In this document: piece by piece, positions 14,843-33,376 of the stretch | Layout: the number at the start of each line of letters is the position of its first letter | Numbering within the stretch: position 1 is the stretch's first letter | Notes under the pieces: model-generated | Told to the model about the DNA's origin: nothing | The model's database searches: none | What the model saw: only the letters and a program-made list of their open reading frames with translations | DNA from: an uncultured Nitrososphaerota archaeon | Lineage (GTDB): Archaea > Thermoproteota > Nitrososphaeria > Nitrososphaerales > Gagatemarchaeaceae | Direction of reading: 5' to 3' | Assembly (NCBI GenBank): GCA_963838925.1 | Contig: CAWISW010000003.1 | Span: 512,001 to 576,000, forward strand | Length of the DNA: 64,000 nt | Made by a program: the position numbers and the translations under genes

Positions 14843-14858
14843 GTGGACCGGGGGACTC
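14843..14858 (-). repeat. att-like copy of tRNA-Ala(GGC) 3' end (most distal)
   Basis: + strand GTGGACCGGGGGACTC versus GTGGACCGGGGGGGACTC at the tRNA. Confidence 0.7.
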
Positions 14859-14981
14859 ACATGAATATTCAGGTGGAACTTGGACCTTTGAAGCCCAAAG
14901 CCCCGCTGTTCCCTACTGGGTCTAGAGCCGGAAATGACAAGGTTACAGATTCTAGCGGATCCTGTCCCAGAGGACCGTCCC

Positions 14982-15899
14982 TCAACCGACTTCCATCTTG
15001 GTGAACGCGTAGGTGCCGAGAAACAGCATGAAGAGAGCGAACCCAGCTATGACCGCGAAGTCTAGGAGCGGGGACATGAGATACACTCCGGTGAGGGCGC
15101 CCCTTATCCCGTCAACGCCGTAGGTGAGAGGGTTGACGAACTGGACCTGGTAGAGCACGGGTATGCCCTTGACCATGTTTATCGGGAACATGCCGCCAGA
15201 GAGGAAGAACAGCGGCATCTCAATCATGCTCACGAGGCTCATGAAGCCCTCCGTTCCCTCGATGAGAGCACCGAGCGTCAGACCGAAACCAACGAAGCTC
15301 AGGAAGGTGAGCACCATGAAGCCGAGCGCCAGCAGGAAACCGGTAACGCTGACGATGTGGAAGCCGAACCAAACGCCGAAGAGCAGCGCAATGGCAATCG
15401 TGAGCAGCCCCTGAAACATGGCGATGGTCATCGCGCCGAGGCTCCTGCCCATCATGAGCGAAGTGCGCCTGACGGGGGCGACCATAACCTCCTTCAGGAA
15501 ACCGAACTCCTTGTCCCAGAGAACGGTGACACCGCTGTTGGTGCCCGCGAAGAGCAGCCCCATGCCGATGATTCCAGGGACGACGAACGCAAAGAACGGA
15601 AGGCCCCCGAACACAGTTCCTGACGGGAAGAGCCTGCTCAGCGGCAACCCGAAGAGGATCATCCACGTGAACGGCGAGACAATCGCAGAGACGGTTCGAG
15701 TCTTCATTCGGAAGAATCGGATCAGCTCCCTGAGCCACATGCTGTAGATCGGCTGCGCTTCTAGGATGGGCCTCCTCCGCTTTGCGGCCCTCGTCATTCC
15801 GGTTGCGATTCCAACCTCAGCTGGTTTCTCCAGTACCTGCCGGGGGTATTCGTCCTCGGTGGCCCGAGACGTGTCTTCTGTAGAGGCAGGTTCTGCCAA
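14982..15899 (-). CDS. ABC-2 type (DrrB-like) permease
   Basis: WLRELIRF, PGIIGM, DKEFGFLKEVMVAP, NPLTYGVD. Confidence 0.88.
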   Translation of the reverse strand: MAEPASTEDTSRATEDEYPRQVLEKPAEVGIATGMTRAAKRRRPILEAQPIYSMWLRELIRFFRMKTRTVSAIVSPFTWMILFGLPLSRLFPSGTVFGGLPFFAFVVPGIIGMGLLFAGTNSGVTVLWDKEFGFLKEVMVAPVRRTSLMMGRSLGAMTIAMFQGLLTIAIALLFGVWFGFHIVSVTGFLLALGFMVLTFLSFVGFGLTLGALIEGTEGFMSLVSMIEMPLFFLSGGMFPINMVKGIPVLYQVQFVNPLTYGVDGIRGALTGVYLMSPLLDFAVIAGFALFMLFLGTYAFTKMEVG

Positions 15900-15901
15900 C
15901 T

Positions 15902-16906
15902 CTATCTTCCCCCTGACCTGACGCTTCTCCTCAGCCGCACATCCTTGGCGGCACCTTCGGCCTCCCGTATCGTCCTGCCAGTCAGTTGCACAAAGACATC
16001 CTCAAGGTTCGGTTCACGCTCGTCAACGGACGTAATCGCAAAGCCGTGTTTTTCCGCAAAGTCCACGAGCTCAGCTACCCTTCCCTCGCCCCGCTCCACG
16101 TCGAGCAGAACCCCGGTGCCGTATTCTTCCGCGCCCTTTATCCAGCCAAGCTGTCTTACTCTCTCCAGGAATTCAGCCCCCTTCTCTTTGGGGTTCTCTA
16201 TCCCGAGCGATATCAGATCCATGCCCACAGCTTCCTTGAGCCTTGCAGGCGTGTCCATCGCTATGATCTTTCCCTGGTCGATAATTGCTACGCGGTCGCA
16301 CAGGTAATCGGCCTCCTCGATATAGTGCGTTGTGAGCGAGACGGTCACGCCTTCGGTTTCCCTTGCCTTCTTTATCTGCGCCCACAAGTCCATCCTCGCC
16401 TTTATGTCGAATCCGATCGTCGGTTCGTCCAGGAAGACTACCTCGGGATAGGTCATGAAACCCCTGGCCACCTCGAACCTCCGTCGAACCCCCTCGGGAA
16501 GGTCGTGGAGCTTGACGTTCTCTTTGCCCTCCAAGTCGAGCAGAGCTAGGACCTCCTCTATCCTCCTCTTCCTGTCCTCGCTGCTCAGGTTGTACATCCT
16601 ACCATGGAAGTCGAGGTTTTCCCTGCCCGTAAGCCACCAGTCGCTCGAGCGGTCCTGAAAGACTATCCCAATCGAGTTCCTCACCTGGTCGCGGTCCTTG
16701 ACGATGTCATACCCGCATATCTTCGCAGAGCCCGACGTTGGGTACAGGAGGGTCGTCAGCATCTTTATCGTCGTGGACTTCCCAGCACCGTTGGGGCCGA
16801 GGAAGCCGAAGATTTCGCCCTTCTTGACTGCGAAGCTGACGCCATCAACGGCCGTGAAATCCCCGAACGTCTTGGTGAGGGCGACGGCCTCTATTGCCGC
16901 TTCCAA
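15902..16906 (-). CDS. ABC exporter ATP-binding protein (DrrA-like) with degenerate signature motif
   Basis: GPNGAGKST, FLDEPT, TTHY; LPEGV replaces LSGG; TTG start at 16906 inferred. Confidence 0.85.
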   Translation of the reverse strand: MEAAIEAVALTKTFGDFTAVDGVSFAVKKGEIFGFLGPNGAGKSTTIKMLTTLLYPTSGSAKICGYDIVKDRDQVRNSIGIVFQDRSSDWWLTGRENLDFHGRMYNLSSEDRKRRIEEVLALLDLEGKENVKLHDLPEGVRRRFEVARGFMTYPEVVFLDEPTIGFDIKARMDLWAQIKKARETEGVTVSLTTHYIEEADYLCDRVAIIDQGKIIAMDTPARLKEAVGMDLISLGIENPKEKGAEFLERVRQLGWIKGAEEYGTGVLLDVERGEGRVAELVDFAEKHGFAITSVDEREPNLEDVFVQLTGRTIREAEGAAKDVRLRRSVRSGGR

Positions 16907-16907
16907 C

Positions 16908-17939
16908 TCAGTCCTCGCCTCTCTCCCTCGCCGCTTTACCCGTGTAACGCAAGAGAACGTCATCCAGACTGGCCCTGTGGGATTTTATGGACGAGACGTC
17001 GAATCCGTGTTTCGTGGCAAACCTCACTATCTCCAGTATTCCGACGCTTCTGTCTTCCATGCTGAGGACCAACGAGGAGTCAATCTTCCTGACGTCTTTT
17101 ACCCATCCAAGCTCTCTCAACTGCCCCTCGAACTCTTGGTCCGAACCCTTGGATAGCCTGAGCGTTATCAGGTCCTCGCCCACCGAGGCCTTGAGCTGAT
17201 CTGGCGTGCCTATCGCTAGAATCCTGCCTTCGTCCATGATCCCTGTTCTGTTGCAGAGATAGTCAGCCTCGTCAAGGTACGACGTCGCCAGCAGGACTGT
17301 CGTACCTCTCTCCCTGTTTATCCTCTTGATGTAATCCCACACGTACCTTCTGGTCTGCACATCGAGGCCTATCGTCGGCTCGTCCAGGAAGAGGACCTCC
17401 GGAGCTGTCAGCATCCCCCTCGCTATCTCGAGCCTCCGCAGCATCCCTCCAGAGTAATCGTGCACTTCCGCATCTGCATGAGCTTCCAATCCCACTGTTC
17501 TTAGGACGTCGGCCACCCGCTTCTCTCTGACCTGTCTCGGTAGGTTGTACATGCGCGCCGCGAAATCGAGGTTCTCCTTCCCCGTAAGATAGATGTCGAC
17601 GGCCTCCTCCTCGAATACAAGCCCGATGGACCGCCTCACGCCGTCCTTGTCCTTCACGATGTCGTGGCCGCACACCGTGGCGCTCCCAGATTCCGGGTTC
17701 AGGAGGGAAGAGAGCATCATGACAGTCGTCGTCTTGCCAGCCCCGTTCAGGCCGACAAGCCCGAAGATCTCTCCCCGACGCACCTGGAAGCTGATGGAGT
17801 CAACCGCAGTAACATTTCCATAGCGTTTGGCGAGGTTCCTGACGTCGATGACCGCTTCGCTCTCACTACCGTCGGCGCTGCCAACAACAACGGCGATCGT
17901 CGCTATCGGGCGCTGTTGTCGTTGAGGAACGGTATCCAT
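16908..17939 (-). CDS. ABC exporter ATP-binding protein (DrrA-like)
   Basis: GLNGAGKTT, YSGGM, FLDEPT; H-loop reads ATSY. Confidence 0.85.
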   Translation of the reverse strand: MDTVPQRQQRPIATIAVVVGSADGSESEAVIDVRNLAKRYGNVTAVDSISFQVRRGEIFGLVGLNGAGKTTTVMMLSSLLNPESGSATVCGHDIVKDKDGVRRSIGLVFEEEAVDIYLTGKENLDFAARMYNLPRQVREKRVADVLRTVGLEAHADAEVHDYSGGMLRRLEIARGMLTAPEVLFLDEPTIGLDVQTRRYVWDYIKRINRERGTTVLLATSYLDEADYLCNRTGIMDEGRILAIGTPDQLKASVGEDLITLRLSKGSDQEFEGQLRELGWVKDVRKIDSSLVLSMEDRSVGILEIVRFATKHGFDVSSIKSHRASLDDVLLRYTGKAARERGED

Positions 17940-18181
17940 CTCGGTCGAAGTCCTAGAGCGCTTCGGTCGAGCAAACAGTTAAGCAGGACACACGTTTCTC
18001 AAGTTTGAGAAACGGTCTACCCGTTCTCCGAGGTGGTGCGCCGTCGTGCCTGCGCATATGGACGTAGCAGCAGTTCGCGCTGCACAACTGGCACATGAAA
18101 TGGTATCCGGACTTGTTGGGTTTCAATCGCGCAAGCCTAATATCTCCTGACAACGGAGCAGTTTAGTCAACTGGGGTTTGA

Positions 18182-20350
<2,169 letters not shown>

Positions 20351-21045
20351 AAGAATTCAAATGGCGGGCCCAGCAGGATAAGCTTGGAAAATCAAGCGAA
20401 TCCGATTGCTCAGCCAAGCAAGATGGGAAGTTCGATTGTCTGGAGGCGTTTGAGCGGACTCGTAGCGGTCTCCTACGGCTTAATGAAGTCATGGGGATTT
20501 CAAGGATAACACCGATCGAGAGCGAGTCCGGCATCTGTGATGCTAGGTTCTCAATCGTATTCGAAGTAGAGAGTGAGACGAGCGCTGAATAGGGTCTCCA
20601 CTCATTCTTGACGAGCGAAGATTTAACTATGAATTTGGCTTGAAACGGCTCGATTGATTCATGAAATGCTATTTTTGTGAAAATGATGCAAGAGGGACAT
20701 GCTCGGACTGCTCCAGGGGCGTGTGCAAGGCGCATTCAATCGTACATAATGCCGGTAGGGTAGGAGATGGAACGGCCCCGAGACTGATTTGCAAGGAATG
20801 CGAAGCGGCAATGTGAAGCCGGTGCGCCCATAACTTAGGTTAGAATCCTGCTGAAAAGTGACCACTTCATCAAGAAAACACCTCCCTTCGAGAGATAAGA
20901 TACAATATCTCAGAGATTATGCAGGCTATAAACAGGGCAGGGTACTCGAGTAGGCTGATCAGAAGAGAGGCGAAGTGAAAGCACGCGGAGGTAGAGGGTC
21001 TGAGCAAGCGTAAATACTACGCAGTCATCATGGCGGCCGAGTGTC

Positions 21046-21234
21046 ATGACCAAGGAATTCGCCTGCAAGGACATCGGCATGAGCTGCGGTTTCAAGGCTT
21101 CTGCCAAGACGGAGGATGAATTGATGCCGAAGATCGCCCAGCATGCGAAGGACGTACACAAGTTGGACCCGATTCCCGCAGAAACCTTACAGAAGGTCAA
21201 GGCCGCCATCAAGGACAAGAAAGGCTGGTTTTGA
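21046..21234 (+). CDS. DUF1059 family small metal-binding protein
   Basis: FACKDIGMSCGF..A.TEDEL...HA..VH. Confidence 0.8.
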   Translation: MTKEFACKDIGMSCGFKASAKTEDELMPKIAQHAKDVHKLDPIPAETLQKVKAAIKDKKGWF

Positions 21235-21408
21235 GAACCCCCATCAGCCGCCCTGAGTGACTCAACCGGGTAGCCTTGGCATCGTAGCAAAAGGGCGTCC
21301 TTTTGCCGTCGGTCACGAAATTCTATAAAGTAAAAGGGCACCTGCCTGGTGCCCCGCCAAATCCGCCGGCGATACCTGCAAAACAGCCGACTACAACTGC
21401 TAGCGTCC

Positions 21409-22644
21409 CTAGAGTTTGCCTTCAGGTCTGCTCGTGACCGCTGGTCTTTCGATTTCGTGCGGCTCGCTCGTCTCTCCGAAGTAAGCGTCCATCAGCCAGC
21501 TCCATCCTCCCTGAATCGTGGACCAGTATATCTTCGCGAACTCCCTTTTCATTTCGTATCGCAGGAACGTTGGCTCTTCCCGCTTCGGCGCGGCCTCGTA
21601 GGTTCCGGAGACAAACAGCGCTTTCCGTCCTCCCGTCTCCATCGGACAGTTGATTCTCCCATTGTATTCGAAGACTTCGCTGCTCCCCTTGAGGTCAGCG
21701 GCGACGTTCTTTGCGACAGCTTCAGCCTGCAGGTGAGCCACTACCCCTGACTTTGAGATCGCTATGTTGGTGGCGTCGCCGAGCGCATATCCATCCGGGT
21801 GGTCTTTCATTCTCATCGTGTGCTTATCGGCGGGTATCCATCCCTCCTCGTCGCCGATTCCCGAAGCTAAGACCACATCGGCTCCTCTGTGCGGAGGCAC
21901 CGCGATCAGCAGGTCGTAGTCCTCGCTCTCGCCCTCGAGACTGTAGATTTTCTTTGCCGCTGGGTCAACGTGGTCCGCGGCGAAAAAGGGGACTAGCTCG
22001 ATTCCCCTCTTCTCGAACATTGGTTGTATCACCTCCGAGATGTGCTCGGCGGGGTATGCCCTGGGGTAGGGAGTGAGGAACTTGACCTGCACTGATCCCC
22101 TGACGCCCCGCTTGCGGAAGAACTCGTCAAGCATGAACGCGGCCTCGTTCGGGGACGGCGGACACTTGTGGGGGACGCTAGTGATGGCTACCACCACCTT
22201 GCCGGTCTTGAACTGCTGAATGGCCTCCCAGATCTTAGACGCCTCCACAGCTCCCGTGTGGAAGTTTAACGAGGCCACAAGCAGCCCGGGCATCAGCTCT
22301 GGTCTGGCGACAGCGCCCGTAGCCAAGACGATGTAGTCGTATGACAAAGTTGAACCCCGCCGAGTCGTCACAACCTTCGCTTTCATATCGATACGGGCCG
22401 CTCCCTCGTTGACGTATTTCACGCCCTTCTTGAGGAGGGTCGTTTCGCGGCGAACGGCAATCTTGGGGTTTGCTCCCTTGAATGCAATGTCGAGGTTGGC
22501 AGGCTGGAAGGTGTGTTCGTCCCCTTCGCCGACGAGCTGAATGCTGATTTCTCCGAGGCGGATTTGCGCCTTGAACTCCTGCGCCAAGAGGTTCGCTAGG
22601 AGGGTGCCGCCCGCTCCTGCCCCAACTATCAGGACACGCTTCAA
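21409..22644 (-). CDS. Sulfide:quinone oxidoreductase-like flavoprotein (type III-like)
   Basis: GAGAGG FAD motif, KCPPSP and INCPMETG cysteines, YALGDAT..SKSG. Confidence 0.8.
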   Translation of the reverse strand: MKRVLIVGAGAGGTLLANLLAQEFKAQIRLGEISIQLVGEGDEHTFQPANLDIAFKGANPKIAVRRETTLLKKGVKYVNEGAARIDMKAKVVTTRRGSTLSYDYIVLATGAVARPELMPGLLVASLNFHTGAVEASKIWEAIQQFKTGKVVVAITSVPHKCPPSPNEAAFMLDEFFRKRGVRGSVQVKFLTPYPRAYPAEHISEVIQPMFEKRGIELVPFFAADHVDPAAKKIYSLEGESEDYDLLIAVPPHRGADVVLASGIGDEEGWIPADKHTMRMKDHPDGYALGDATNIAISKSGVVAHLQAEAVAKNVAADLKGSSEVFEYNGRINCPMETGGRKALFVSGTYEAAPKREEPTFLRYEMKREFAKIYWSTIQGGWSWLMDAYFGETSEPHEIERPAVTSRPEGKL

Positions 22645-22648
22645 GGCG

Positions 22649-22897
22649 TTACGCTTTCTTTTTGGTGACTCGAACGACTATCCGAGTGTAGCCCTTCTCT
22701 TCGGCAGTCTCGATGAGCTGGTTTCCCGTGTGCGCCGCCCAGGCCTGAATGTCGCTCTTCGCGGCGGGGTCGGTCGCCCAGACCTCGAGAACCGCGCCGA
22801 CCTCTGCGGTCCTATACGCCTTGAATAGGTCTGTTAGGGGGCCTGGACAGAAGCTACCCCTAGAGTCGATGACCTTCTTCTGGCTGGCCTGCGCCAT
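22649..22897 (-). CDS. tusA: TusA family sulfur carrier
   Basis: IDSRGSFCPGP, ATDP..DI.AW. Confidence 0.88.
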   Translation of the reverse strand: MAQASQKKVIDSRGSFCPGPLTDLFKAYRTAEVGAVLEVWATDPAAKSDIQAWAAHTGNQLIETAEEKGYTRIVVRVTKKKA

Positions 22898-22910
22898 TCC
22901 CTATCGCCGC

Positions 22911-23366
22911 TCAGATGAAGATCGTCTGGCCGTTCTCGGCAAGGTGGAGGAATGTGGACGCGCCCACGATATCGTCGACCTCGGGAATGAAGTCTTCCTT
23001 CTTGAGGCCCATCATCTCCATAGTGGTCGAGCAGGCATGGAAGTGAACACCCATGTCGTGAGCATTCGCTATCATCTCGGGTATCGTTGGGATCTTCAAC
23101 TGTCTTATCGCGCCCTTCACCATTGGAGTGGTCATGCCTGGGCTCGCATCGGGGCCGACCTCGAGACTGGCTTCTGTTTTTTTGTTAATCACAGCCATCC
23201 CCCAAAAAGTGAAGAATATGTGAACCTCCATTCCCATGGCGCCCCCTGCGTTCGCCAGCATGAACGCTGGATAGGCCATATCGAGCGATCCCTTTGAAAG
23301 GATTATCGAAAGTTTGCCTCCCTCCTTAGTTTCAGGTTCTGTCTTACCCGTTGTAATTTGTGCCAA
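22911..23366 (-). CDS. DsrE/DsrF/DrsH-like (DsrE2-type) protein
   Basis: IFFTFWG, ACSTTMEMMG, IVGASTFL. Confidence 0.85.
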   Translation of the reverse strand: MAQITTGKTEPETKEGGKLSIILSKGSLDMAYPAFMLANAGGAMGMEVHIFFTFWGMAVINKKTEASLEVGPDASPGMTTPMVKGAIRQLKIPTIPEMIANAHDMGVHFHACSTTMEMMGLKKEDFIPEVDDIVGASTFLHLAENGQTIFI

Positions 23367-23671
23367 TATGATTCACTGTCGTTACAATAAACGCATCGAA
23401 TTATTTAAACTGGGGACGCAATTCTCACCTTTGAGAAGGGCGCACTAGAGACGGGAGTTTCTCTTCTAGATTACTCCAAGCAGTAGATTGCTCGGCCGGA
23501 TGGGATTCGTCTCTTGTTCTCCTGTACGCGGACATTCTTTGGAGCTAGGTCCGACAACTCTCCATGGGCATGGACAGCGTTTGACAGGGGGGTTCATGGG
23601 CTGGTATCTGGGATCCTCGAAGCAATCTGCCTCACAGGGAAGCGTTTTATTTCATCATCCAGAAGAAGAGC

Positions 23672-24004
23672 ATGAGGAACATGAAGATTGGACTTGTGAT
23701 CTCCACGAGCGAGCCAGAGCTCGCATGGAACGCTTTCAGATATGGGGTGAAAGCCATCGAGAACAAGCATTCCGTAAGGGCCTTCCTGCTCGGAAGGGGC
23801 GTCGAGTGCGAAGAGATCGAGGATGACAAGTTCAACGTCAAGAAGATGATGGCCGAGTTTGTCGACGCAGGAGGAACCATCCTAGCTTGCGGAACCTGTC
23901 TGAAGATTCGGAAGAAGGGTGGGACAGAACTCTGTCCAATCTCCACAATGCAGGACATGGTGGACCTCACAGTGGACTCCGACCGAGTTCTCACGTTTGG
24001 CTGA
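23672..24004 (+). CDS. DsrE family protein
   Basis: WNAFR, FLLGRGVE, ACGTCL, CPISTM. Confidence 0.82.
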   Translation: MRNMKIGLVISTSEPELAWNAFRYGVKAIENKHSVRAFLLGRGVECEEIEDDKFNVKKMMAEFVDAGGTILACGTCLKIRKKGGTELCPISTMQDMVDLTVDSDRVLTFG

Positions 24005-24257
24005 ATAAAGGACGCACAAATTCCTCTGCTGAGCGTCGCAAAGGCGCGAACTCACAGGCAATCCGGAAACGGAGTCGACAAGTTGCAACAACCTCTACCA
24101 ATTACGCTCGCTTAGCGACGCCCCCTTCTCAGGTAACCCGCGTCATTCATTAGCAGTATAGTGCCGAGGCGCAATTGTCAAGGATTAGGACTTTCCTGGG
24201 TGAATTGTCATCGTTCGAGCCTTACGAGTCAAACAGAGTCTAAACTAGGCTATTTGC

Positions 24258-24276
24258 TGTGGACCGGGGGGACTCG
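24258..24276 (-). repeat. att-like copy of tRNA-Ala(GGC) 3' end
   Basis: + strand TGTGGACCGGGGGGACTCG; one G shorter than the tRNA copy. Confidence 0.8.
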
Positions 24277-24492
24277 CCCAAAATAATTAGGGTGTGCTTA
24301 TAGGGGATGGTATCCAATAACCTCTGAAAGCTCGAAAAATACTGCGATCGGTGGATGAATGCCGAAGGCAGGAATACAACCCGCGGGTTCAAATCTCCAG
24401 CGTATTTTCGACCGGTCATCAAATCATTTGACTAGAATCGAGCGCTTGTCGGTGAAGGATTCCTGGGTGGTTTTCGAAATCTTGACTGATTG

Positions 24493-25359
24493 CTAAGCTA
24501 CCACGATCGTTCCGGTTCCGCTCGTTGGGTGTTCCGTGTCCATGTATGTGTATGTCCCGCCTTGAGTGAGTGTGATGCTCCAAAGATTGTATGATGATAA
24601 CGTAGGAGAGGTCGTGCTTACTATGCTTGTGAAACTTATTGTCTTGTCACCCGAATCGGCCTCACCGCACCAATTATGCGGAGCATCTGTGTTGTAGAAG
24701 TAGACGGTCGAGCCCGTCGGCACAGTCACGTTGGACGGGTTGAATGCGTAATATGAGAGGTACACTAGGTACTGAACGACTCTCACTTGAATAGAGGTAG
24801 ACTCAACCTGATTTCCCGAAGTAGCCGTCACGTTTAGCGTGTAGTTGCCCGCGTTCTCCGAACTGGGGGCACTGAGAAAGATTTGGCTCATTTGGACCTG
24901 CCCACCACCAAGCGCGACCGAGGGGAATTCGAACGACACCCCCAGACCACCCGAAACTGTCCCGGTGAGGGATACTGTCTCGCTTCCACTGGTAACCGGA
25001 TTAATCGTTAGGACCAGATCGTTAGTGCTGTCGCCGGGTGCCAGGACAAACTGATTGGTGTTCGCCGTCAAGCTGAAAGCAAAAGCTGCCTGTGACGTCG
25101 ACGACTGAGTTGTAACCTTTGAGGTAGAAGAGGTAGACGTAGCATTGCCAGTGGTCGTTGTCGATGTTGTCACGCTGCTTGTTGAACTGGAACCCGTTGT
25201 GGTCGAAGTCGACTGCTCCGAAATCGAGCTAGTGGTGGTTGTATTCGACTTGGAACTCGCTCCAGAGAGTGCGAAGTATGCTCCTGCTGCGACGACGATT
25301 ATCACAACAAGTGCGACAGTCGCTATGATTGGGGTTCCGATGCCGGCCCGCGTCTTCAC
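24493..25359 (-). CDS. Membrane-anchored S/T-rich protein with Ig-like domain and C-terminal cupredoxin-like domain
   Basis: N-terminal TM helix, S/T linker, FNPSNVTVPTGSTV..NTD..H, GTYTY...HP..GTIVV. Confidence 0.7.
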   Translation of the reverse strand: MKTRAGIGTPIIATVALVVIIVVAAGAYFALSGASSKSNTTTTSSISEQSTSTTTGSSSTSSVTTSTTTTGNATSTSSTSKVTTQSSTSQAAFAFSLTANTNQFVLAPGDSTNDLVLTINPVTSGSETVSLTGTVSGGLGVSFEFPSVALGGGQVQMSQIFLSAPSSENAGNYTLNVTATSGNQVESTSIQVRVVQYLVYLSYYAFNPSNVTVPTGSTVYFYNTDAPHNWCGEADSGDKTISFTSIVSTTSPTLSSYNLWSITLTQGGTYTYMDTEHPTSGTGTIVVA

Positions 25360-25366
25360 GCGTTTC

Positions 25367-25957
25367 TCACCAATTCCGAACTTCGGTTCCAGTCTTTGGC
25401 GACCATTGCGAACGGCAACAGGTCGATAAACATGTATACATAAACGAACCTCCCCGGGCTACTTGTAGGTGCTCAGCGCCCACATTCCGAAGATGGATAC
25501 GGAAAAGAAAGAGCACTGTGGCACTTGCAAGAAGAGCTGAAGACCCTAGAACCGAGGTCCCTCCCAATGCTGTGACCAGCCCACCACTATTCGTCACACC
25601 GGCTGTCTGAGTCGAATTGCTGCTGGATGTCATGAGGAAAGTGAAGTGGAAAGACGGCATCTGCTCCGGATGGTCCTGCGGAGTCAGCAGCGGGTACCTG
25701 TACTCTACAACCTGCTGCGAGGCAAAGTTCGAGCCACCCCACCACTCCGACGGATACAGATCGATCGTGTGTATTCCAGGCTCACCCGTGGCGACGATCG
25801 TTACTGTCACGTTCCCGCCGCTGTTGAACCCGCACGCGTATCCGATGTACGAGTTGTCGTAATCGACGGCGACTATGTTTGTGTTGAAGTCCCATCCCAC
25901 TCCGTGCATTATGACCTGGATCTGCGTACCCTGCGGTCCTTGAGTCGTGCTCAGCAC
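25367..25957 (-). pseudogene. 5'-truncated fragment of a secreted/membrane-anchored protein
   Basis: Starts mid-domain next to the repeat arm at 25974; beta-rich domain, S/T linker and C-terminal hydrophobic stretch; no signal peptide. Confidence 0.5.
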
Positions 25958-25973
25958 GGCGCTTCTCTGGATG

Positions 25974-26044
25974 AAATAAGCTCAAATCTAGCCTATTTAG
26001 CCGTAAATAGCTCACTTTAAGCTCAAAAGTGTGGACCGGGGGGG
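25974..26044. repeat. Phased-repeat arm plus att copy; ~80% identical to 32286-32357
   Basis: AAATAAGCTCAAATCTAGCCTATTTAGCCGTAAATAGCTCACTTTAAGCTCAAAAGTGTGGACCGGGGGGG. Confidence 0.85.
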
Positions 26045-26288
26045 TTCCGCCCCTTGCAAGGGGCGAGTCCCTGGCCAAACTCTGAGTAGGTCTGGAACCC
26101 TTGCCGTTCCACACCTTTGTCCATTGGATATACTTGGAACGCCCCGTATTTATGCGCCTATTTCTAGAATCCGGGCCAAGCTTCGATACGACTTTGTCGC
26201 CATTGTGCTGGTCGACCTCGATGGGCACTCTGGGCATCACAGGACTTGTATAAACTTATATAGACAGTTAGCTTGCATTTACACAGGT

Positions 26289-26585
26289 ATGACGCTTCAG
26301 ACCGCACGTCACAGCGGCATCTTGATCAAGAGAGTGTTGCACGAGCCGAAGATATCTACCGTGATGATGATAGAGAAGGCAATCCTCGACCATGAGGACT
26401 ATCCAACGAGGACGGAGCTCTGGAACTCCCTCCCGAAGAAGGTCCAGTATCAGACCTTCCAGAGGGCCCTCCAATATCTCGAGAGTCACGGCACCATCGT
26501 CATCAACGACGAGGGACAGATTTTCTACACGGGGGTAAACAACCCGAAGCTCAGGAAGCTGCTCGCGACGAGCGTGCCGGCCTAA
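26289..26585 (+). CDS. Winged-HTH protein, putative antitoxin/regulator
   Basis: TELWNSLPKKVQYQTFQRALQYLESHGTI; TTATATA upstream of ATG 26289. Confidence 0.65.
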   Translation: MTLQTARHSGILIKRVLHEPKISTVMMIEKAILDHEDYPTRTELWNSLPKKVQYQTFQRALQYLESHGTIVINDEGQIFYTGVNNPKLRKLLATSVPA

Positions 26586-26589
26586 TACC

Positions 26590-26913
26590 TCAATAACCGA
26601 ACCTTTCCTCATAGCTCTTGTGATTCAGGGCTTCGAGCACAAGCACGGAAACCTCGTCGCCGTCCCGAACGAGCGTGTAAATCGCCCTGAAGCCCTCTGG
26701 GAGGTGGTAGCGGAACAGGTTGTTCACGCCGAACCTTCTCATGTAGCGCTGGGGAATCAGGTTCTTTCGGACGCTCTCGCCTGCGAACATGTTTTCCAGA
26801 AGGACTAGCTTCATGTCGTCAAGCCACTTCCGCTCCGCGTCGTTCTGCGGAAGACTGTCGAGGTGAGCCTGGAGCCCTCCTTCGAACTTGACTGATTTCG
26901 GGGCTCTAGCGAT
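26590..26913 (-). CDS. RelE/ParE-like toxin
   Basis: NNLFRYHLPEGFRAIYTL..HKSYEERFGY; frame open to 26916, first ATG only at 26814, so start uncertain. Confidence 0.6.
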   Translation of the reverse strand: MARAPKSVKFEGGLQAHLDSLPQNDAERKWLDDMKLVLLENMFAGESVRKNLIPQRYMRRFGVNNLFRYHLPEGFRAIYTLVRDGDEVSVLVLEALNHKSYEERFGY

Positions 26914-27533
26914 TGCTCATCCCGCCCATTCGAAAGACACCACCGGCATAGTAAAGCGTTCTGAGCCGGCCCGGATAGAAGACAGAGGAAGTGGCGGTAC
27001 TAGGAAGGCTGGCATACCCCTCCGCTCCTGATTTGAATAGAAGGCGGAGGGTTCCGCCTCTAAGCAGAAGTGGACGAGGAGGCTCGGCCGATTATTCGTC
27101 CGAGTCTTCGGCCTCCCATGCCCAAAGACCCGTTGCTCACCAATGAATGAGGTCGCGGCAATAAAAAGACCACGTCGGGCCAGGTATTCCGTCATCCAGC
27201 AAAGGGAGTTCAATTCCGGTGAGATTCAAACCTGAACGGGTTCAATTCCGCCGCGAAGATAGCCGAAATCCACTCGGGCCCCATGTCCAATCGATTCCCG
27301 AGAAGCAGTACCGACAGCTGCACCCGGGCTAGGCGATATGAACTGCGGACGCCATGGGATACAAGCAAGAGCCACCGCCACCATTACCCGGTCGTATTTC
27401 CTCGGACTTGAGCCACTCCGTGCGAGAAACAAGAGGCCCGTAATTGATGTTGAATGGCCGTGCAATATGGACTTGGAATCCACACGGCTTAAAGTCTTCA
27501 TTGCGGCCTTCGAGGAAGTAAGGCGACGCGGCC

Positions 27534-28493
27534 ATGAGCACATCGGAACAACCCCTGATCTCGGTCGAGCAAGTCACCAACGAGAGTTTGGTGGAATTCC
27601 GAGACGTCGATTGCAAGATTTCAGGCAAGAACATCCTGAGAGGAATCACACTAGGCATCGACCGCGGGGAAATAATGGGCATCCTCGGGAGAAACGGCGC
27701 AGGAAAGTCGACGCTTCTCTCCCTCATATCTGGGCTAAGGAGTAGTACATCTGGAGAAATCACAGTGCTGGGGAAAAGAATGCCTTCGCACGCAGACGAG
27801 TCTCGAAGAAGAATGGGCTTTGTCCTTCAAGAGGACGCGCTTTACCAAGAGCTAACCGTCTTCGAGAACTTGAAATTCGCTGCTAGTCTTTACAATCTAG
27901 AAGATTCGCGGAAGAGGATTCTCGAGGTGCTTGAGATTCTCGGCCTCTCAGACCGGCGCGACCAGGTCGTGAGCACTCTTTCAGGAGGCCTCAAGAGGCG
28001 CACTGCCATTGCCCGCGCTTTCCTTCACGACCCGGAGTTGTTCATCATTGATGAGCCTACGCTTGGAGTCGATGCAGATGCGCGTCACGCGGTTTGGGCT
28101 TACCTCCGCCTACTGAGATCGAGGAGGAGGACTGTCATCGTTGCTACCAATTATCTCGACGAGGCGCTGGCTTTGTGCGACCGCGTTGCGGTCTTGGAGA
28201 AAGGTAGGTTGTTGGCGGTCGAAGAGCCCCGCGAGCTGGTGATGCGTACGGGCAGTTGCATCGACGTAGATTGCGACGAGCAGACTGCCAAGAGGATTGC
28301 CTCGGGCCTGACGGGCGCAAGGCAGGTAACCCGCACCGACTTGACCTTGAGCGGGATTTCGCTGTTCTTGGCTAGAGGCACGAAACCAGACGAAGTCTTG
28401 CGGGAATTCGCATCGTACGGCGGCATTGAGGGATTCCGTTTGCGCGCACCTGATCTTTCGGAAGTCTTCAAGTCGTTCGGTACGAGTCCATGA
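27534..28493 (+). CDS. ABC transporter ATP-binding protein
   Basis: GRNGAGKST, LSGGLKRR, IIDEPT. Confidence 0.88.
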   Translation: MSTSEQPLISVEQVTNESLVEFRDVDCKISGKNILRGITLGIDRGEIMGILGRNGAGKSTLLSLISGLRSSTSGEITVLGKRMPSHADESRRRMGFVLQEDALYQELTVFENLKFAASLYNLEDSRKRILEVLEILGLSDRRDQVVSTLSGGLKRRTAIARAFLHDPELFIIDEPTLGVDADARHAVWAYLRLLRSRRRTVIVATNYLDEALALCDRVAVLEKGRLLAVEEPRELVMRTGSCIDVDCDEQTAKRIASGLTGARQVTRTDLTLSGISLFLARGTKPDEVLREFASYGGIEGFRLRAPDLSEVFKSFGTSP

Positions 28494-29593
28494 GCAACCA
28501 AGCGAGCGCCCTGCTTGGTGGGATCAATGCTGAGCTTAACAGGTTGCGCAGATCGCGCCTCCTCATCGCCCTGGTTCTGGTCCAGGCAGTAACGTTTCTC
28601 TTGCTCGTGACGCTTTTCGGCGTTACGGGCGGTTTCGCGCCCACTATAGTGGTGAATCACGACAATGGCACGCTTTCACAGGTGTTCATCACCAACCTAG
28701 AAAATGACCATCACTCGTTCGCCTTGACATTCATGAGCAACGAGACGAGCGCAAAGCAACAGGTTGCGCAGGGAAATTTCGTGGCGATGATCGTCATTCC
28801 ACCGGGGTTTTCGCAGAGCGTCCTTGATGGAAAGACCGTGCCCGTCACTGTCTTTATCGATAACATCAACACCGACATGACCTCGGACATCCAGCGCGCG
28901 ATGCCTTCGGCCATCTTGAGTTTTGGTGAGCAGCTCAAAGTCGAAGGCCTGAACGCGAGCGTGGCCGAGGCCGACACCTACCCACACGATACAAGCTTCA
29001 TCGACTACATGGTTGCGAGCGCTCTAGTGTTGGACGCTCTCATAATCGCAGGCACCTTAAGCGCTCTCTCGGTTGCCGAGGAGTTCGAGTCGAAGACTGC
29101 CAAGCTTCTCGCGGTGTCGCCAGTTCACCCTCTCGTTCCGTTGATAGGCCGGGTCATGGCAACGGCTTTGGTTTCGGCTGGGGCTCTAGCGATTACCGTT
29201 TTCGTTGCCCTCGCTGGTTACGGTATTTCGCCGGTTTACCCTCTTCAGATGGCGGCAGTCCTGCTCTTCTGCGTAGTAATTTTCAGCTGTATCGGCGCCG
29301 CGCTTGGCGCGGTTTTGAAGAGGACGCTTCCCGTGGCCTTGCTCGTTCTGGGCATCGCCCTTCCTTTATTTCTCTACAGCGGCTCATACGAACCGGAACG
29401 GTTCGACGGGACCTACATCTGGCTCGCGGCGCATTTTTCGCCAGAATACTATGCTGTTGGTCTGATGGAGCATGCGGTCTTCAATCTGAAGGTCACTCCT
29501 GAGCCGCTTAGCGTACTCGCCCTCGGCTTGGTCGGGTTTGGGATTGGAGCGTTAGCATTGGCGGGGTTTTACTCCAGAAGAGGGTTTCTATGA
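28490..29593 (+). CDS. ABC-2 (YhgE/YbhR-like) permease
   Basis: TM helix, extracellular domain (FVAMIVIPPGFS), further TM helices; ATGA overlap. Confidence 0.8.
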   Translation: MSNQASALLGGINAELNRLRRSRLLIALVLVQAVTFLLLVTLFGVTGGFAPTIVVNHDNGTLSQVFITNLENDHHSFALTFMSNETSAKQQVAQGNFVAMIVIPPGFSQSVLDGKTVPVTVFIDNINTDMTSDIQRAMPSAILSFGEQLKVEGLNASVAEADTYPHDTSFIDYMVASALVLDALIIAGTLSALSVAEEFESKTAKLLAVSPVHPLVPLIGRVMATALVSAGALAITVFVALAGYGISPVYPLQMAAVLLFCVVIFSCIGAALGAVLKRTLPVALLVLGIALPLFLYSGSYEPERFDGTYIWLAAHFSPEYYAVGLMEHAVFNLKVTPEPLSVLALGLVGFGIGALALAGFYSRRGFL

Positions 29594-30717
29594 AGCTCGG
29601 TTCGCTGTTTACAATCGCTCTGCATGACCTCGCCAGGTGGAGGAAGATGCCCCTCACTGCAGCTGCCGCGCTTGTCCCACCGATCACGATGATGCTGATC
29701 CTCGCGACATTGAGCATTGCAGTCACGCAACAGCCCGTTGCACTGGTTGTGCAAGGGAACGGCCCGGCGTCGACGCGAATGGCTCAAATCATCGAAAATG
29801 ACACCGAAGCATATTATCTCACGTTTACGAACGCGACTACTGCGAACTCGTTGCTCCAGAGCGAGCAGGTCGCTGCCGTCATCACCATCCCAGCAAACTT
29901 CTCAGCAGATGCGGCTAACGGAACTGGAAAGGTCCTCGTCAAGCTCAACAACGTCGACTACGACTTTTCTGACGACATTCGCAGAAGCGTAGACCGGTCT
30001 GTCGTGGAATTCGACGCCCCGACCCTCATCTCGGACAATCTGTTGAACACAACGGTGCCCAACGCGTACCATGTAACTCTCGAGGAGCAGGCCCTCAGGG
30101 TGACTAACGTTGACTGGTTCCACTACCAGCTAGTTCCCACTTTCGTGCTGCTGACCCTCAACGTCGGTCTCGTCGGAACTGCCTTACTGTGCGCGCTCGA
30201 TGAGGAGAGCAAGACCGCCCGTATGCTAGTCCTATCGCCTCAACGAGCTAGGACGCTAGTCTTCGGTCGCATCTTGGGAGGAGTCCTCACATGCTTCGTG
30301 ATCGTGACTCCCGCGGTACTGCTGTCAGTCCTGATCGGTTTCGTCAGCTTGCCAATTGAACAACTACCGGCCCTGTTCGGGATATTTTTGGGGACTGCAT
30401 TGTGTGCAGCAGGTACCGGTGCAATAATCGGTACCCTCGTAAAAGGCACAAGGTATGTCGCGTTTCTCTCCTCAATAGCCGCAACGTATCTGTTCCTCCT
30501 AGGGGGAGGGTTTACTGCGATTGAGTTTGCTCCCCGTTGGCTTCAGAATCTGAGCGCGTTCATCCCGACCCGATATTCTATAGACGCCTTACGGCAGGCC
30601 CTGTTCTATCCCAACCCCACTGGAATTCCCCTGTCGCTCTCGCTTCTTGCGATTTACGCCATCGCCTGCGTCGGGGTTGGCGCGCTCCTCATGAGGCGCT
30701 CTTGGTTGCGCAAATAA
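29590..30717 (+). CDS. ABC-2 permease
   Basis: AVITIPANFS, PRWLQNLSAFIPTRYSIDALR; ATGA overlap. Confidence 0.8.
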   Translation: MKLGSLFTIALHDLARWRKMPLTAAAALVPPITMMLILATLSIAVTQQPVALVVQGNGPASTRMAQIIENDTEAYYLTFTNATTANSLLQSEQVAAVITIPANFSADAANGTGKVLVKLNNVDYDFSDDIRRSVDRSVVEFDAPTLISDNLLNTTVPNAYHVTLEEQALRVTNVDWFHYQLVPTFVLLTLNVGLVGTALLCALDEESKTARMLVLSPQRARTLVFGRILGGVLTCFVIVTPAVLLSVLIGFVSLPIEQLPALFGIFLGTALCAAGTGAIIGTLVKGTRYVAFLSSIAATYLFLLGGGFTAIEFAPRWLQNLSAFIPTRYSIDALRQALFYPNPTGIPLSLSLLAIYAIACVGVGALLMRRSWLRK

Positions 30718-30901
30718 CCCTTCGATTGGGAAAAATAGAACTTGGCCTGCTTATATAACATAGGTCATACACATGCTCCCGTGTGAACTGAGAAGTTGAG
30801 TGACCATGTGATATTTCTTGGTTTACCTCTCCTCATTGAGGGGCTCGCCATTGGCCAGTCATGCGCCTTTGAGGCCGCACATTTTGCAGCACTCCTGATG
30901 A

Positions 30902-32158
30902 TTGGATCCAGAGCTCACAGCCCGCGGAGAGACTCGGCCAGCGTCTTGGAATGGCGTTTACATGCATGAAAGCAACCGCTCAAGGCTAACTGGCTGGTTC
31001 AGGAATTTCGGGCCTGCCTGGCTCGTCATGATGGCAGACATAGACGTCGCCTCCATCATAACGGCCCTCCAAGCCGGCTCGACCTGGGGGTACAGGATGG
31101 TGTTCATCATGCTGATGCTGGCTGTACCCCTCTTCATCATCCAGGATGCTGCTGGCCGTTTGGGAACGGCTTCGGGCGTCGGCCTGGGCGAAGCCATTCG
31201 CAAGTTCTTCGGCAGGCGGGCGGCTATCATCGCCGCTTTTCCCATGGGCGTGAGCGACTTTCTTGAGTATGTCGCTGAGTACGCGGGCATAGCAATCGGC
31301 CTCTATCTTCTGGGGCTGCCCGTTCTCTCTGGTCTTCTCTTCGTCTACGTTCTCCACACCATGATTGTGGTGGGCAGGCAGTACAGACACGCCGAGGTGG
31401 TGCTCATACCTCTGAGCTTCTTGCTTGTTGCCGCGATAGCAGCCTCAACATTCGTATTCCATATTGACGTGAGCAAGTTTCTCTCTGTCGGTCTCTCCCC
31501 GTTCCAGCCTTATGGCAATCCCTCGTTCGACTATCTGCTTGCGGCGAGCATAGGCGCCGTCGTGATGCCGTGGATGTTGTACTTTCATTCCGGTGCAAAC
31601 TCGCGTAGGAAGAAGCATCCGAAGGACCTGAAGAACGAGCGCATCGAAACCCTGGTGGGCGCCATCGTTTCCGAGGTCCTCATGGCCGTAATCGTTGTCG
31701 ACGGGCTGCACCTTTCCACCGGGGGCGGCCTGATTAGTCAATCGGAGCTGTCGGATGCGCTCCCCCTCTTCGGCCCGTACGCTTCCACAATCATGGGGTT
31801 GGGGTTCATATTCGCTGGCTTTCTCGCGCTAGTCGTGATATCCCTCGGCTCGGCTTGGGGCGTGCTCGAGGCGATAGGCCTGAGGTCAAAGGCTTCCTTC
31901 CTCTCGGTCTACGCGGTCGAGAGCCTGCCGGCCGTGATTCTCGTGGCGGTAGTGACGGGATATATCCAGCTCTTACTGAACCTGATGGTCCTCTTCACCA
32001 TAATCATCATACCGTCGTTGTACTTTCTCGGCAGGTTGGTCTCGGATGCCAAAGTGATGAATGGGAACCATTACAGCAGATACCAGATGGTGGCATTCTG
32101 GGTGGCGTCAGGCTCGATAGTCGTCGGGGGAATCCTAGGGCTGATTACGCTCCTTTAG
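30902..32158 (+). CDS. NRAMP-family divalent metal transporter (NRMT/Mg-type-like)
   Basis: GPAWLVMMADID, IGAVVMPWMLYFH; lacks canonical DPGN; start may be ATG 30962. Confidence 0.82.
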   Translation: MDPELTARGETRPASWNGVYMHESNRSRLTGWFRNFGPAWLVMMADIDVASIITALQAGSTWGYRMVFIMLMLAVPLFIIQDAAGRLGTASGVGLGEAIRKFFGRRAAIIAAFPMGVSDFLEYVAEYAGIAIGLYLLGLPVLSGLLFVYVLHTMIVVGRQYRHAEVVLIPLSFLLVAAIAASTFVFHIDVSKFLSVGLSPFQPYGNPSFDYLLAASIGAVVMPWMLYFHSGANSRRKKHPKDLKNERIETLVGAIVSEVLMAVIVVDGLHLSTGGGLISQSELSDALPLFGPYASTIMGLGFIFAGFLALVVISLGSAWGVLEAIGLRSKASFLSVYAVESLPAVILVAVVTGYIQLLLNLMVLFTIIIIPSLYFLGRLVSDAKVMNGNHYSRYQMVAFWVASGSIVVGGILGLITLL

Positions 32159-32285
32159 ACCTTCCATTTTCCTGGCAGAGAGGGATCAAGGTGCCCTCCT
32201 TGCGTCTCGTGGGCCGGAAGGGACCCATCCGCCCAGCACAAATTCTGCTAGGACTCGAACTCCCACCAACTAAGGGGAATTAGCC

Positions 32286-32357
32286 AAATAAGCTCGAATG
32301 TAGCCCATTTAGGGGCACATAGCTCAAAATAAGCTCTAAAGTTGTGGACCGGGGGGG
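32286..32357. repeat. Phased-repeat arm abutting tRNA-Ala(GGC) 3' end
   Basis: AAATAAGCTCGAATGTAGCCCATTTAGGGGCACATAGCTCAAAATAAGCTCTAAAGTTGTGGACCGGGGGGG. Confidence 0.85.
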
Positions 32358-32456
32358 ACTCGGACCCCCGACCTGTCCCAATCTGGACTCTTGGTTTGCC
32401 AAGGGATTGGACGACGCAACAATCGTCTCTATCCTACCAAACTAGACGACCGGCCC
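32345..32456 (-). tRNA. tRNA-Ala(GGC) with two BHB introns (27/28: 32407-32428; 37/38: 32381-32396)
   Basis: GGGCCGG/CCGGTCC acceptor with G3:U70; spliced arm GTCCC-TT-GGC-AT-GGGAC; both introns fold into BHB motifs; T-loop TCCGAGT is atypical. Confidence 0.85.
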
Positions 32457-32482
32457 ACTATCACGCGACTCCTGAAGTATGG

Positions 32483-32490
32483 AATAAAAG
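32483..32490 (-). promoter_or_regulatory. Putative TATA box for tRNA-Ala(GGC)
   Basis: CTTTTATT about 27 nt upstream of tRNA position 1. Confidence 0.5.
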
Positions 32491-32527
32491 AGTTGTCTGA
32501 GCTAATGCGGTCACTCGGAGAATTCCA

Positions 32528-33211
32528 TCAAAGTAGATGTCGCGACCACCAGACGTAAGGCACGACTGAAATCTGATAGCCTGCTTCAACCAGTTCCCCT
32601 GTGCTTCTTTCGCTTATTGACTGACCGACTTCGTTCTGAAAGTTGATTATCATGCCTGGCTTGACCACTCCTTCATTCGCCAGAAATATCCATGATTCTA
32701 TATCGCCAGCGCCTGGGGTCTTTCCCGTAAAGGCTTCGTGAGCAACCGGTGCTCCCCCGGTCGTCTCGGCTAGGTGATCGAAGTAGACCGTCTTGTGCGG
32801 CGCGTCGAACGCTCGTGCCGAAGTTGACCCTGCCACATAGTTGTTATTCGGGCTACGATTGTTTCCCCATCTCTGAAAGCGTTCTTCGAGGTATCTGATT
32901 GTGGCATTTTCAATCATTAGCCTGTCCGTAGTTCCTCGAGTTGCCTTGTTCCATTTCAAAGACACGTTTGGAAATGGACGATTGGGTTTCATTTCAATCT
33001 GCAATGAGGACTTTAGGTTCTGCCGATTGAGTCCAAATAATCGGCCAAGTTCCTCTTCCATCCAAGCCCTAACCAGAGTGCGCGCAATCTTGCGTATCAT
33101 CAGATTGCCCCGAGCCTCATCATTCAGAGCTCGAACCGGGCTCCCTAGTCCAAAGTATCCCCCTGGCCCGGTGCCTGGAAAAATCACATTGAGGACATGA
33201 ATCAGTTCCAC
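32528..33211 (-). CDS. Hypothetical low-GC protein, possible PD-(D/E)xK nuclease fold
   Basis: YFDHLAE..VAHEAFTGK resembles a D...E-x-x-x-K nuclease motif; AT-richer than flanks. Confidence 0.4.
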   Translation of the reverse strand: MELIHVLNVIFPGTGPGGYFGLGSPVRALNDEARGNLMIRKIARTLVRAWMEEELGRLFGLNRQNLKSSLQIEMKPNRPFPNVSLKWNKATRGTTDRLMIENATIRYLEERFQRWGNNRSPNNNYVAGSTSARAFDAPHKTVYFDHLAETTGGAPVAHEAFTGKTPGAGDIESWIFLANEGVVKPGMIINFQNEVGQSISERSTGELVEAGYQISVVPYVWWSRHLL

Positions 33212-33352: not shown

Positions 33353-33376
33353 GCTGTTGTCGCCTAATTCAGCCGG

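Follow-up and report, generated by a model that had tools for sequence, protein, structure and literature searches.

Classically, archaea capture genes through an SSV-type integrase whose gene is split on integration, and capture of this kind next to tRNA genes was reportedly described by She et al. in 2001. Here we describe an array of repeats and cellular-type genes at the 3′ end of the tRNA-Ala(GGC) gene of a soil archaeon, within a stretch of 64,000 nt (the window, positions 512001-576000 of contig C3 of genome G000). The array would resemble SSV-type capture in that elements unable to excise become fixed host genes beside a tRNA, and it differs in that SSV-type capture works by splitting the integrase gene, of which no split copy was found in the genome with PF16795. 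We regard the region as probably a tRNA-anchored island formed through serial site-specific integration, that is, as an archaeal case of a type of island already known.

Several described systems offer points of comparison. According to the part of the survey by Krupovic et al. (2019, PMC6563490) available to us, tRNA genes account for 57% of the integrations of thaumarchaeal integrated mobile genetic elements (iMGEs), their attachment (att) sites have a median length of 17 bp and can be as short as 8 bp, elements with tyrosine recombinases build arrays by re-using one site, and the cargo includes auxiliary metabolic and stress genes, copper proteins among them. The locus described here shares with these elements an archaeal host, a tRNA target, a short att (14–20 bp here), tyrosine integrases (here in relatives) and a similar cargo, whereas an integrase, which defines those elements in the same partial account, is lacking from the window segments, and these measure 1.0–9.4 kb as opposed to an iMGE median of 17 kb (PMC6563490). 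A pattern of conserved arms around variable cargo, as set out below, was not met in the available part of that paper, and the literature was not searched specifically for integrase-less archaeal cassettes.

In the tycheposon islands of Prochlorococcus, as presented in the accessible sections of Hackl et al. (bioRxiv 10.1101/2020.12.28.424599), older elements are displaced inward by successive integrations, and partial tRNAs and degenerate remnants are scattered. There, as here, partial tRNA repeats bound the units and the cargo mirrors environmental pressures, and populations there are mixed for excised and tandem forms, as they may be here; however, tycheposons are bacterial and in that account hold an integrase and a replication module by definition, neither of which has a Pfam match among 58 open reading frames (ORFs) of the window, and there is no sequence relationship. 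The array works like the remnant of a tycheposon island, yet is no member of that group. Of the casposon hallmarks (Cas1 casposase, PolB, terminal inverted repeats and target-site duplications), Cas1 and PolB have no Pfam match among the same 58 ORFs, and those of integrons (IntI beside attI, with attC cassettes) do not describe the array, as it has no integrase and its repeats are a tRNA end; the likeness to integrons lies in the cassette-like layout only. The pNOB8-type (class II) archaeal integrases, one of the subjects of a review of 17 families (PMC8371274, consulted in part), carry the signature R...YxxR...Y. A family found in relatives of the host, that of the protein P0001 (not a window gene), appears by fold and signature to be of this type, with a gene that stays intact on integration (the lambda paradigm); it differs in having no PF00589 match at E up to 10 and in a core far shorter than the 40–50 bp given for the Sulfolobales pNOB8 integrases in the consulted part of that review.

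The host genome (1,843,972 bp) is a metagenome-type assembly of three contigs, rated 87% complete. The 12-mer GTGGACCGGGGG is present at window positions 14843, 24259, 26031 and 32344, on the + strand each time, and a search of both strands of the genome recovers these four copies only, every one inside the 17.5 kb of the array; chance is therefore excluded, and the repeat array is confirmed as real. A fifth, degenerate core emerges from BLAST comparisons with the loci of relatives, in which window 27011-27075 matches the arm and core start adjoining the tRNA in G006 and G031, and 27070-27138 matches the core and next arm of G018 and G009. The cores and the tRNA are as follows.

14843..14859, + strand: core R1, GTGGACCGGGGGACTC, with a run of five G (G5); distal end of the array
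24259..24277, + strand: core R2, GTGGACCGGGGGGACTCG, G6
26031..26044, + strand: core R3, GTGGACCGGGGGGG, G7; identity to the tRNA stops after the G-run
27070..27087, + strand: fifth core, degenerate, GTGGACGAGGAGGCTCGG, from BLAST of the island against the loci of relatives
32345-32456, - strand: tRNA-Ala(GGC), whose 3′ end is the att core at 32344; from alignment and intron-aware ARAGORN

The first-pass annotation, made from the letters of the window, had proposed a tandem, same-orientation, att-bounded array at the 3′ end of tRNA-Ala(GGC), and this is borne out by four exact cores and the degenerate fifth, with no copies of the motif scattered elsewhere in the genome. It had placed the first core correctly at 14843 and the next two one base early, at 24258 and 26030, and had read G-runs of 5, 6, 7 and 7, as we do. 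Its motif, with ACTC following the G-run, fails at 26031, where the TTCC that follows begins a conserved arm (alpha, below) found in three genomes and is not decay. Segments of ~9.4 and ~1.8 kb stand as proposed, but that of ~6.3 kb is split into 1.0 and 5.3 kb by the core at 27070. The age gradient that had been suggested from the G-runs is not sustained: decay is furthest advanced at 27070, the second closest of the cores to the tRNA, and among 47 exact cores in 31 sequences the tRNA-owned copy is G7 in 15 of 16 while the others range from G4 to G13. G-run length tends to track the neighboring arm type (the three cores of locus L058 are all G6 whatever their position), so that homopolymer length is no usable clock.

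The tRNA itself was missed by ARAGORN and by Rfam (E up to 1). It contains G3:U70 and two introns, of 22 nt at 27/28 and of 16 nt in the anticodon loop, and ARAGORN calls it tRNA-Ala(GGC) after scripted removal of the 22-nt stretch at 27/28; the G009 orthologue, which has no first intron, is called tRNA-Ala(GGC) by ARAGORN allowing introns. In an alignment with eight related sequences the exons, G3:U70 and the TTGGCAA anticodon loop are conserved. Across G000, RF00005 yields only 29 tRNAs, four of them under the cut-off and tRNA-Ala(GGC) not among them, and ARAGORN misses or mislabels intron-bearing tRNAs in this genome. Another tRNA-Ala gene with a similar 3′ end (TGGACCGGGGGGGAAT...), its anticodon read as TGC in G007 and G001, has extra partial copies nearby in L024 (G001:C6; positions 1090 and 2017) and L026 (G015:C4; 10783, 12344 and 14691), and arrays are therefore not restricted to the GGC isoacceptor.

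From its distal end, the array runs R1, segment A, R2, segment B, R3, segment C1, the degenerate core, segment C2 and the tRNA. Each segment begins with one of several left arms directly after a core, and the right ends include two copies of an arm that we call T1.

14861..24258: segment A, 9.4 kb, GC 56.9%
14860..14942, + strand: delta left arm of segment A, containing an imperfect palindrome, CATGAATATTCAGG
24278..26030: segment B, 1.75 kb, GC 52.1%
24278-24418, 24419-25975 and 25976-26030: gamma left arm, cargo and short T1 right arm of segment B
26045..27069: segment C1, 1.0 kb, GC 54.4%
26045-26175: alpha left arm of C1
27011-27069: right arm of C1, homologous to the arm between integrase start codon and tRNA in G006 and G031
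27088..32343: segment C2, 5.3 kb, GC 55.5%
27088-27178: beta left arm of C2, the same arm as in the integrase-bearing element of G018
about 32211-32343: long T1 right arm of C2, with three AAGCTC-like boxes and an outer part resembling a tRNA 3′ end

The segments differ from the host in composition, with a GC content of 52.1–56.9% against 0.620 and 0.611 in the 10-kb flanks and 61% in the genome. Direct repeats of the tRNA 3′ end, in the orientation of the tRNA, bound every unit.

Parts of the island are scattered among 18 genomes of the same genus. The tRNA and its pyrophosphatase neighbor are conserved in G018 and G009, and tRNA-Ala(GGC) has extra tRNA-oriented cores beside it, two of them in G018, three in G009 and one in G034, and others in metagenome contigs. 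The closest relatives by flank identity, G017 and G031 (~91% over 1 kb), have different DNA next to the tRNA. Both the relatives and the soil-metagenome contigs differ from the window segment by segment, with presence or absence ending at the repeats, as the first-pass annotation would have it. Island parts are closer between species than is the adjacent pyrophosphatase gene: katG is 89–91% identical with G010, G001, G007 and G015, the C1 interior 88–89% with G009 and G018, the segment B cargo 87–94% with G009, and Nramp 88% with G012, as against only 81% (G018), 80% (G009) and 76% (G015) for the pyrophosphatase region. Homologues of the proteins of this region are labelled Nitrososphaerota or Bathyarchaeia.

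Population data were drawn from four soil-metagenome runs of one study, in the form of Logan contigs only, aligned to positions 13500-33400 at 90% likeness; two of the runs (X3 and X4) cover only small shares of this stretch and were left aside for inferences on habitat or absence. One contig of X1 (depth 4.4, side 28) joins 27069 to 32344, skipping 5274 nt, and one of X2 (depth 3.75, side 38) runs from 32358 back to 27083 in the layout T1 arm, core, beta arm. A joint from 27100 back to 26039 is found in X1 (side 32), and a contig of X3 (depth 2) reads to 25991, then through 33 variant letters, then from 32337. Repeat-induced misassembly is unlikely at the 27069/32344 and 32358/27083 joints since the letters shared are only 6 and 5. 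These two joints are not reciprocal products of the window genome, because both hold an intact G7 core and that of the window is decayed; they suggest strains or relatives in which the array is ordered differently, or circles in those strains. Circular junctions, which might be expected of mobile segments, are represented in these contigs by a circle-like joint from other strains or relatives and by none from the window's own strain.

A candidate for the recombinase is present at this tRNA in relatives. The unit adjoining the tRNA in G018 is 12.6 kb long and bounded by an identical 20-nt core, GTGGACCGGGGGGGACTCGG, and P0001 is a 473-aa ORF of this element whose 5′ end lies 67 nt from the tRNA core. 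P0001 has no match in Pfam (E up to 10, PF00589 included), NCBIfam or PHROGs; in tblastn, however, it finds the single PF00589 protein of G000 (E 1e-20), and with a profile of 16 family sequences the catalytic region matches two structures of XerA, 4a8e (E 9.7e-7) and 5hxy (E 2.8e-4). R159, Y310, R313 and Y348 are invariant in the 16 sequences and correspond to R...YxxR...Y. Some homologues, in metagenome-assembled genomes of Nitrososphaerota and Bathyarchaeia, are labelled 'site-specific integrase', and a few have a precomputed PF00589 match. On this sequence evidence P0001 is a divergent tyrosine recombinase with a pNOB8-type signature.

The family is represented in 21 of 23 genomes from the genus, frequently by many copies, and in G018, G006 and G031 one of them directly adjoins tRNA-Ala(GGC) with its 5′ end facing the tRNA. 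These integrases at the tRNA are intact and lie wholly within their element; the middle core of G018 is abutted by a truncated, N-terminal integrase half. A scan of 16 ORFs of the G031 element, the integrase included, gave no family matches, which is typical of archaeal viruses and plasmids. The predicted site-using integrase is thus found beside the same tRNA in three relatives, in G018 within a same-core element, and is not found in the window; the idea that integrases lie behind the array gains a plausible agent in a family that appears to use exactly this core. G000 itself holds one full-length family member (C3:436914-438194), 42% identical to P0001. It stands at the left end of a 12.6-kb element with GC 0.549 and a 20-nt direct repeat, CCGGCGGGTCTGCCACCATT, at G000:C3:436826-449459, ~75 kb left of the window. 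This repeat differs from the window core, and the GC content of the window segments resembles the 54.9% of this element.

A mechanism consistent with these observations would take the 3′ end of tRNA-Ala(GGC) as a hot spot, at which tyrosine integrases of the pNOB8-type signature, common in the genus, would recombine a 14–20-bp core at the tRNA end, each integration leaving one further copy of the core behind. Later deletions would strip the integrases and sometimes fuse neighboring units, giving four segments and five cores, and each recombinase-free segment would keep short conserved att arms around cellular-type cargo. Two of the segments bear marks of such changes. C1 is best read as an integrase-bearing element reduced by deletion, since it has a right arm of the G006/G031 type and the homology ends at the integrase start, the integrase itself being missing. 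Segment A is a fusion of the delta arm, an ABC-2 set, a katG module and an SQR module: its katG module (18114-20865) is ~91% identical to locus L058 and its SQR module (20903-24005) ~91% to L063, where the two are separate att-bounded cassettes, and the junction at 20865-20903 has no T1-core-arm of the kind that parts these modules elsewhere. We infer that P0001-family integrases probably built this particular array, and that, unless a helper integrase is provided, its cargo is by now presumably fixed in the host DNA.

Several observations weigh against this account. No whole or broken integrase is detectable in the window array, so that its tie to the integrase family rests on other genomes. 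Among the 58 window ORFs searched with Pfam there is no recombinase, capsid or replication protein, as the first-pass annotation had held, and for recombinases the result extends to a six-frame hidden Markov model search of the genome with PF00589, which finds one locus ~500 kb away from the window, and to tblastn of the integrases of relatives against the window, which gives none (best E 0.17, within an Lrp/AsnC gene). Ten unannotated proteins, each compared with PHROGs and NCBIfam, have no match. An 80-aa ORF at 14574-14816, sited where an integrase start would be, was considered as an integrase remnant and rejected, as no similarity was found. The joints described above are single low-depth contigs with short sides (28–38 nt) from one study, and the segment order comes from a metagenome-type assembly, the population data being contigs only (depth 2–9) and no bridging reads. 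The left chromosomal flank is unlike that of relatives: ribosomal protein S10 is the left neighbor in five other contexts (it lies 0.2–2.7 kb left of T1 in G031, G018, L058/L076 and L073) and was not found in the G000 assembly by tblastn, so the left flank of the window may be rearranged or the assembly incomplete there. Left-flank synteny is unusable, since neighbors differ among genomes. Finally, T1-ended segments are never seen with an integrase in the data examined, and integrase-bearing elements end in a different right arm; because of this, simple integrase loss does not account for the T1-ended segments. Loss of the integrase, one of two origins offered by the first-pass annotation, fits C1, while the T1-ended segments do not look like its products; overall, that interpretation is partly supported.

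The arms raise a possibility, to which we give appreciable but clearly minor weight, that the segments are non-autonomous cassettes, each made up of a left arm, cargo and T1, whose excision, and insertion at the tRNA core, depend on an integrase from another element acting in trans. As to how the array arose this overlaps with serial integration; it differs on whether the units are mobile at present. Homology between genomes starts at the cores, extends 55–140 nt into the arms and then stops, with different cargo beyond, so the same arms surround different genes. Of the left arms, alpha is found in the window (26045), G009 and G034; beta in the window (27088), G018 and G009; gamma in the window (24278) and on contig C7 of G031; and epsilon in G018. 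The delta arm (window 14860) also follows the core in L063, L069, L071 and L072, with a weaker likeness in L058/L076. Palindromes are present in the left arms, and in G018 the core stands between inverted repeats. T1 occurs twice in the window (25976-26030 and ~32211-32343) and in G018, G031 and G034, and the 25 nt left of R1 show a weak likeness to its end; the other right arms are the integrase-promoter arms of G018 and of G006/G031 and a further type in G008 and G034. The retention of the three AAGCTC-like boxes of T1 in 23 non-identical copies speaks for such cassettes, whereas the arms as a whole are no better conserved than the shared interiors (80–85% vs 88%).

Segment B has the layout expected of such a cassette, in that 141 nt of gamma arm and 55 nt of T1 arm enclose a 1557-nt interior that is 86–94% identical to an arm-free locus on contig C2 of G009, with a sharp break at both arms. 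Similarly, L058 reads S10, T1, core, delta-like arm, katG, T1, core, beta arm with ABC-2 exporter, core, and in it katG (90.7% identical to the window gene over 2255 nt) stands alone between two cores in a 3.1-kb att-bounded unit; in L063 the SQR-TusA-DsrE module (91% to the window over 2619 nt) has a unit of its own. We counted 17 complete units (four in the window, two in G018, three in G009, one in G034, two each in L058 and L063, and one each in L064, L073 and L077), of which tblastn and Pfam find an intact integrase in one, a truncated integrase in one and none in the remaining 15, and their sizes go down to 0.4–3 kb, too small for an integrase plus cargo. A single scan of JGI metagenome contigs for the T1 end plus core gave 21 loci in which six or more partners follow: the tRNA in 7, beta in 3, gamma in 4, delta in 4, epsilon in 2 and another sequence in 1. 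T1 dominance is built into this sample since selection required T1 plus core, and at least six pairs of loci look redundant (L058/L076, L063/L072, L061/L062, L066/L067, L068/L075 and L073/L074). The metagenome joint of T1 arm, core and beta arm is what a C2 circle would give, although neither a circle nor an empty site is seen in the contig data for the window's own strain. The only other family integrase of G000, at 42% identity to P0001, has a different 20-nt repeat, and katG, SQR and Nramp are found at nine other loci with no core within 1.5 kb, so the cargo also lives outside such arrays. If cassettes of this kind (an alpha, beta, gamma or delta arm, one to a few cellular genes, and T1) are exchanged at tRNA-Ala(GGC) among soil archaea, as we consider conceivable but doubtful, then the pNOB8-type integrases might, just as tentatively, come from virus- or plasmid-like elements targeting the same core.

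The nearness of S10 to T1 in G031, G018, L058/L076 and L073 would suit T1 as the ancestral chromosomal flank of the tRNA; T1 also ends internal segments (in L058, L063, L064 and segment B of the window), which weighs against this. Its outer 45 nt (window ~32211-32262) resemble the 3′ end of a tRNA, acceptor and T-arm, and the outer consensus of the 23 copies matches, at 21 of 21 positions, the tRNA-like 3′ end that opens contig C2 of G000, the only match of the T1 consensus in that genome; the break of this contig therefore coincides precisely with a tRNA-like end. That the outer T1 sequence is a full second tRNA gene was considered and rejected, the 28-nt pattern being present only in G031 itself (one of 23 genomes).

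The exact start of that contig at a tRNA 3′ end, together with the incompleteness of the three-contig assembly, might be taken as a sign that strain variants have been concatenated at a repeat, and the palindromes of the left arms and the inverted repeats around the G018 core might point to transposons with target-site duplications, casposon-like ones included. We consider an artefact or a transposon very improbable. Similar arrays are present in independent assemblies (among them that of G009, in three contigs) and in JGI and ENA contigs, and misjoining is poorly favored because the repeats shared at junctions are short and only ~80% alike. No Cas1, PolB or transposase was found by Pfam among 58 island ORFs, and every duplication involves one and the same tRNA end, which is the pattern of site-specific recombination.

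Least probable of all is capture by a 'suicidal' SSV-type integrase with fragments of the split gene flanking each segment, for which one ORF (26031-26585) that begins inside a core could be cited, as PF16795 has no six-frame matches in the genome, the ORFs abutting cores have no Pfam match, the core-starting ORF looks non-coding by eye before an internal Met, the cores are 14–20 bp as against the 40–50 bp given for suicidal integrases in the consulted part of PMC8371274, and the integrases at the tRNA in relatives are intact and wholly inside their element, so that neither Int(N) and Int(C) flanks nor an att within a gene is found. Serial integration by lambda-like tyrosine recombinases, followed by loss of the integrases, remains the reading we prefer.

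Of the 113 ORFs with 60 aa or more, 58 were searched with Pfam to annotate the cargo, which includes two ABC-2 exporter sets, katG, SQR-like, TusA and DsrE proteins, a Copper-bind protein and Nramp. Unless stated otherwise the assignments below are from Pfam.

14982-15899, - strand: ABC-2 permease (segment A)
15902-16963 and 16908-17939, - strand: ABC ATPases (segment A)
18185-20350, + strand: katG (segment A)
21409-22644, - strand: SQR-like flavoprotein (segment A)
22649-22897, - strand: TusA (segment A)
22911-23366, - strand: DsrE (segment A)
23672-24004, + strand: DsrE-like (segment A)
24493-25359, - strand: Copper-bind domain protein (segment B)
25367-25957, - strand: 196-aa ORF (segment B)
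26364-26585, + strand: 73-aa ORF (C1), winged-helix as read by eye, no family hit
26590-26814, - strand: 74-aa ORF (C1), RelE/ParE-like candidate
27534-28493, + strand: ABC ATPase (C2)
28490-29593 and 29590-30717, + strand: ABC-2 permeases (C2)
30902-32158, + strand: Nramp (C2)

This agrees with the cargo proposed in the first-pass annotation except for a toxin-antitoxin pair. The 74-aa ORF has no hit to Pfam, NCBIfam or PHROGs models, nor to the PDB by phmmer, and an ESM Atlas lead to RelE/ParE/YoeB-type toxins (score 0.92), its sole support, makes it a candidate; the 73-aa ORF is convergent with it and not operonic, and no partner of the putative toxin was identified. Window positions 26031-27136, which include these two ORFs, are collinear with G009 (88%). 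Diverged paralogues (72–81% DNA identity) of the 196-aa ORF and of the cupredoxin-domain gene of segment B lie at G000:C2:404327-409586, and the 196-aa ORF has several copies across the genus. In the metagenomes, summed depth over katG (window 18148-20139) is 72–272, compared with ~1–9 elsewhere in the island for those two runs, which means that a katG of at least 90% identity is carried by many organisms of the sampled soil. A 49-aa Lys/His-rich ORF lies just outside the array at 14476-14625 (+ strand); it is single-copy, with 77–87% DNA identity in G012, G018, G009 and G015, and has no family hit.

A second event has taken place on the opposite side of tRNA-Ala.

32457..33352, - strand: second event on the 5′ side of the tRNA, including an insert of 873 nt, GC 50.9%
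32528-33211, - strand: 227-aa ORF of no known family, within the insert

After the insert come, at 33329-33352, the initial 24 nt of the tRNA in a displaced copy (one mismatch), and the old promoter region. The insert is common to G017 and G031 and absent from G006, G034 and L064, and metagenome contigs that lack it (depth 12.3 and 6.2) run directly from 32406 to 33329.

The locus shows how genes for katG, SQR-TusA-DsrE, Nramp and ABC exporters gather in one variable island of uncultured soil archaea, by what appears to be repeated insertion at one tRNA and then loss of the mobility genes. The integrase family that may be responsible is abundant and escapes the standard Pfam, NCBIfam and PHROGs models, so that searches that start from an integrase overlook such islands. 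Should the cassettes turn out to be mobilized in trans, they would represent a new path for gene flow among archaea, a shuffling of cassettes whose effect would be comparable to that of integrons or tycheposon islands.

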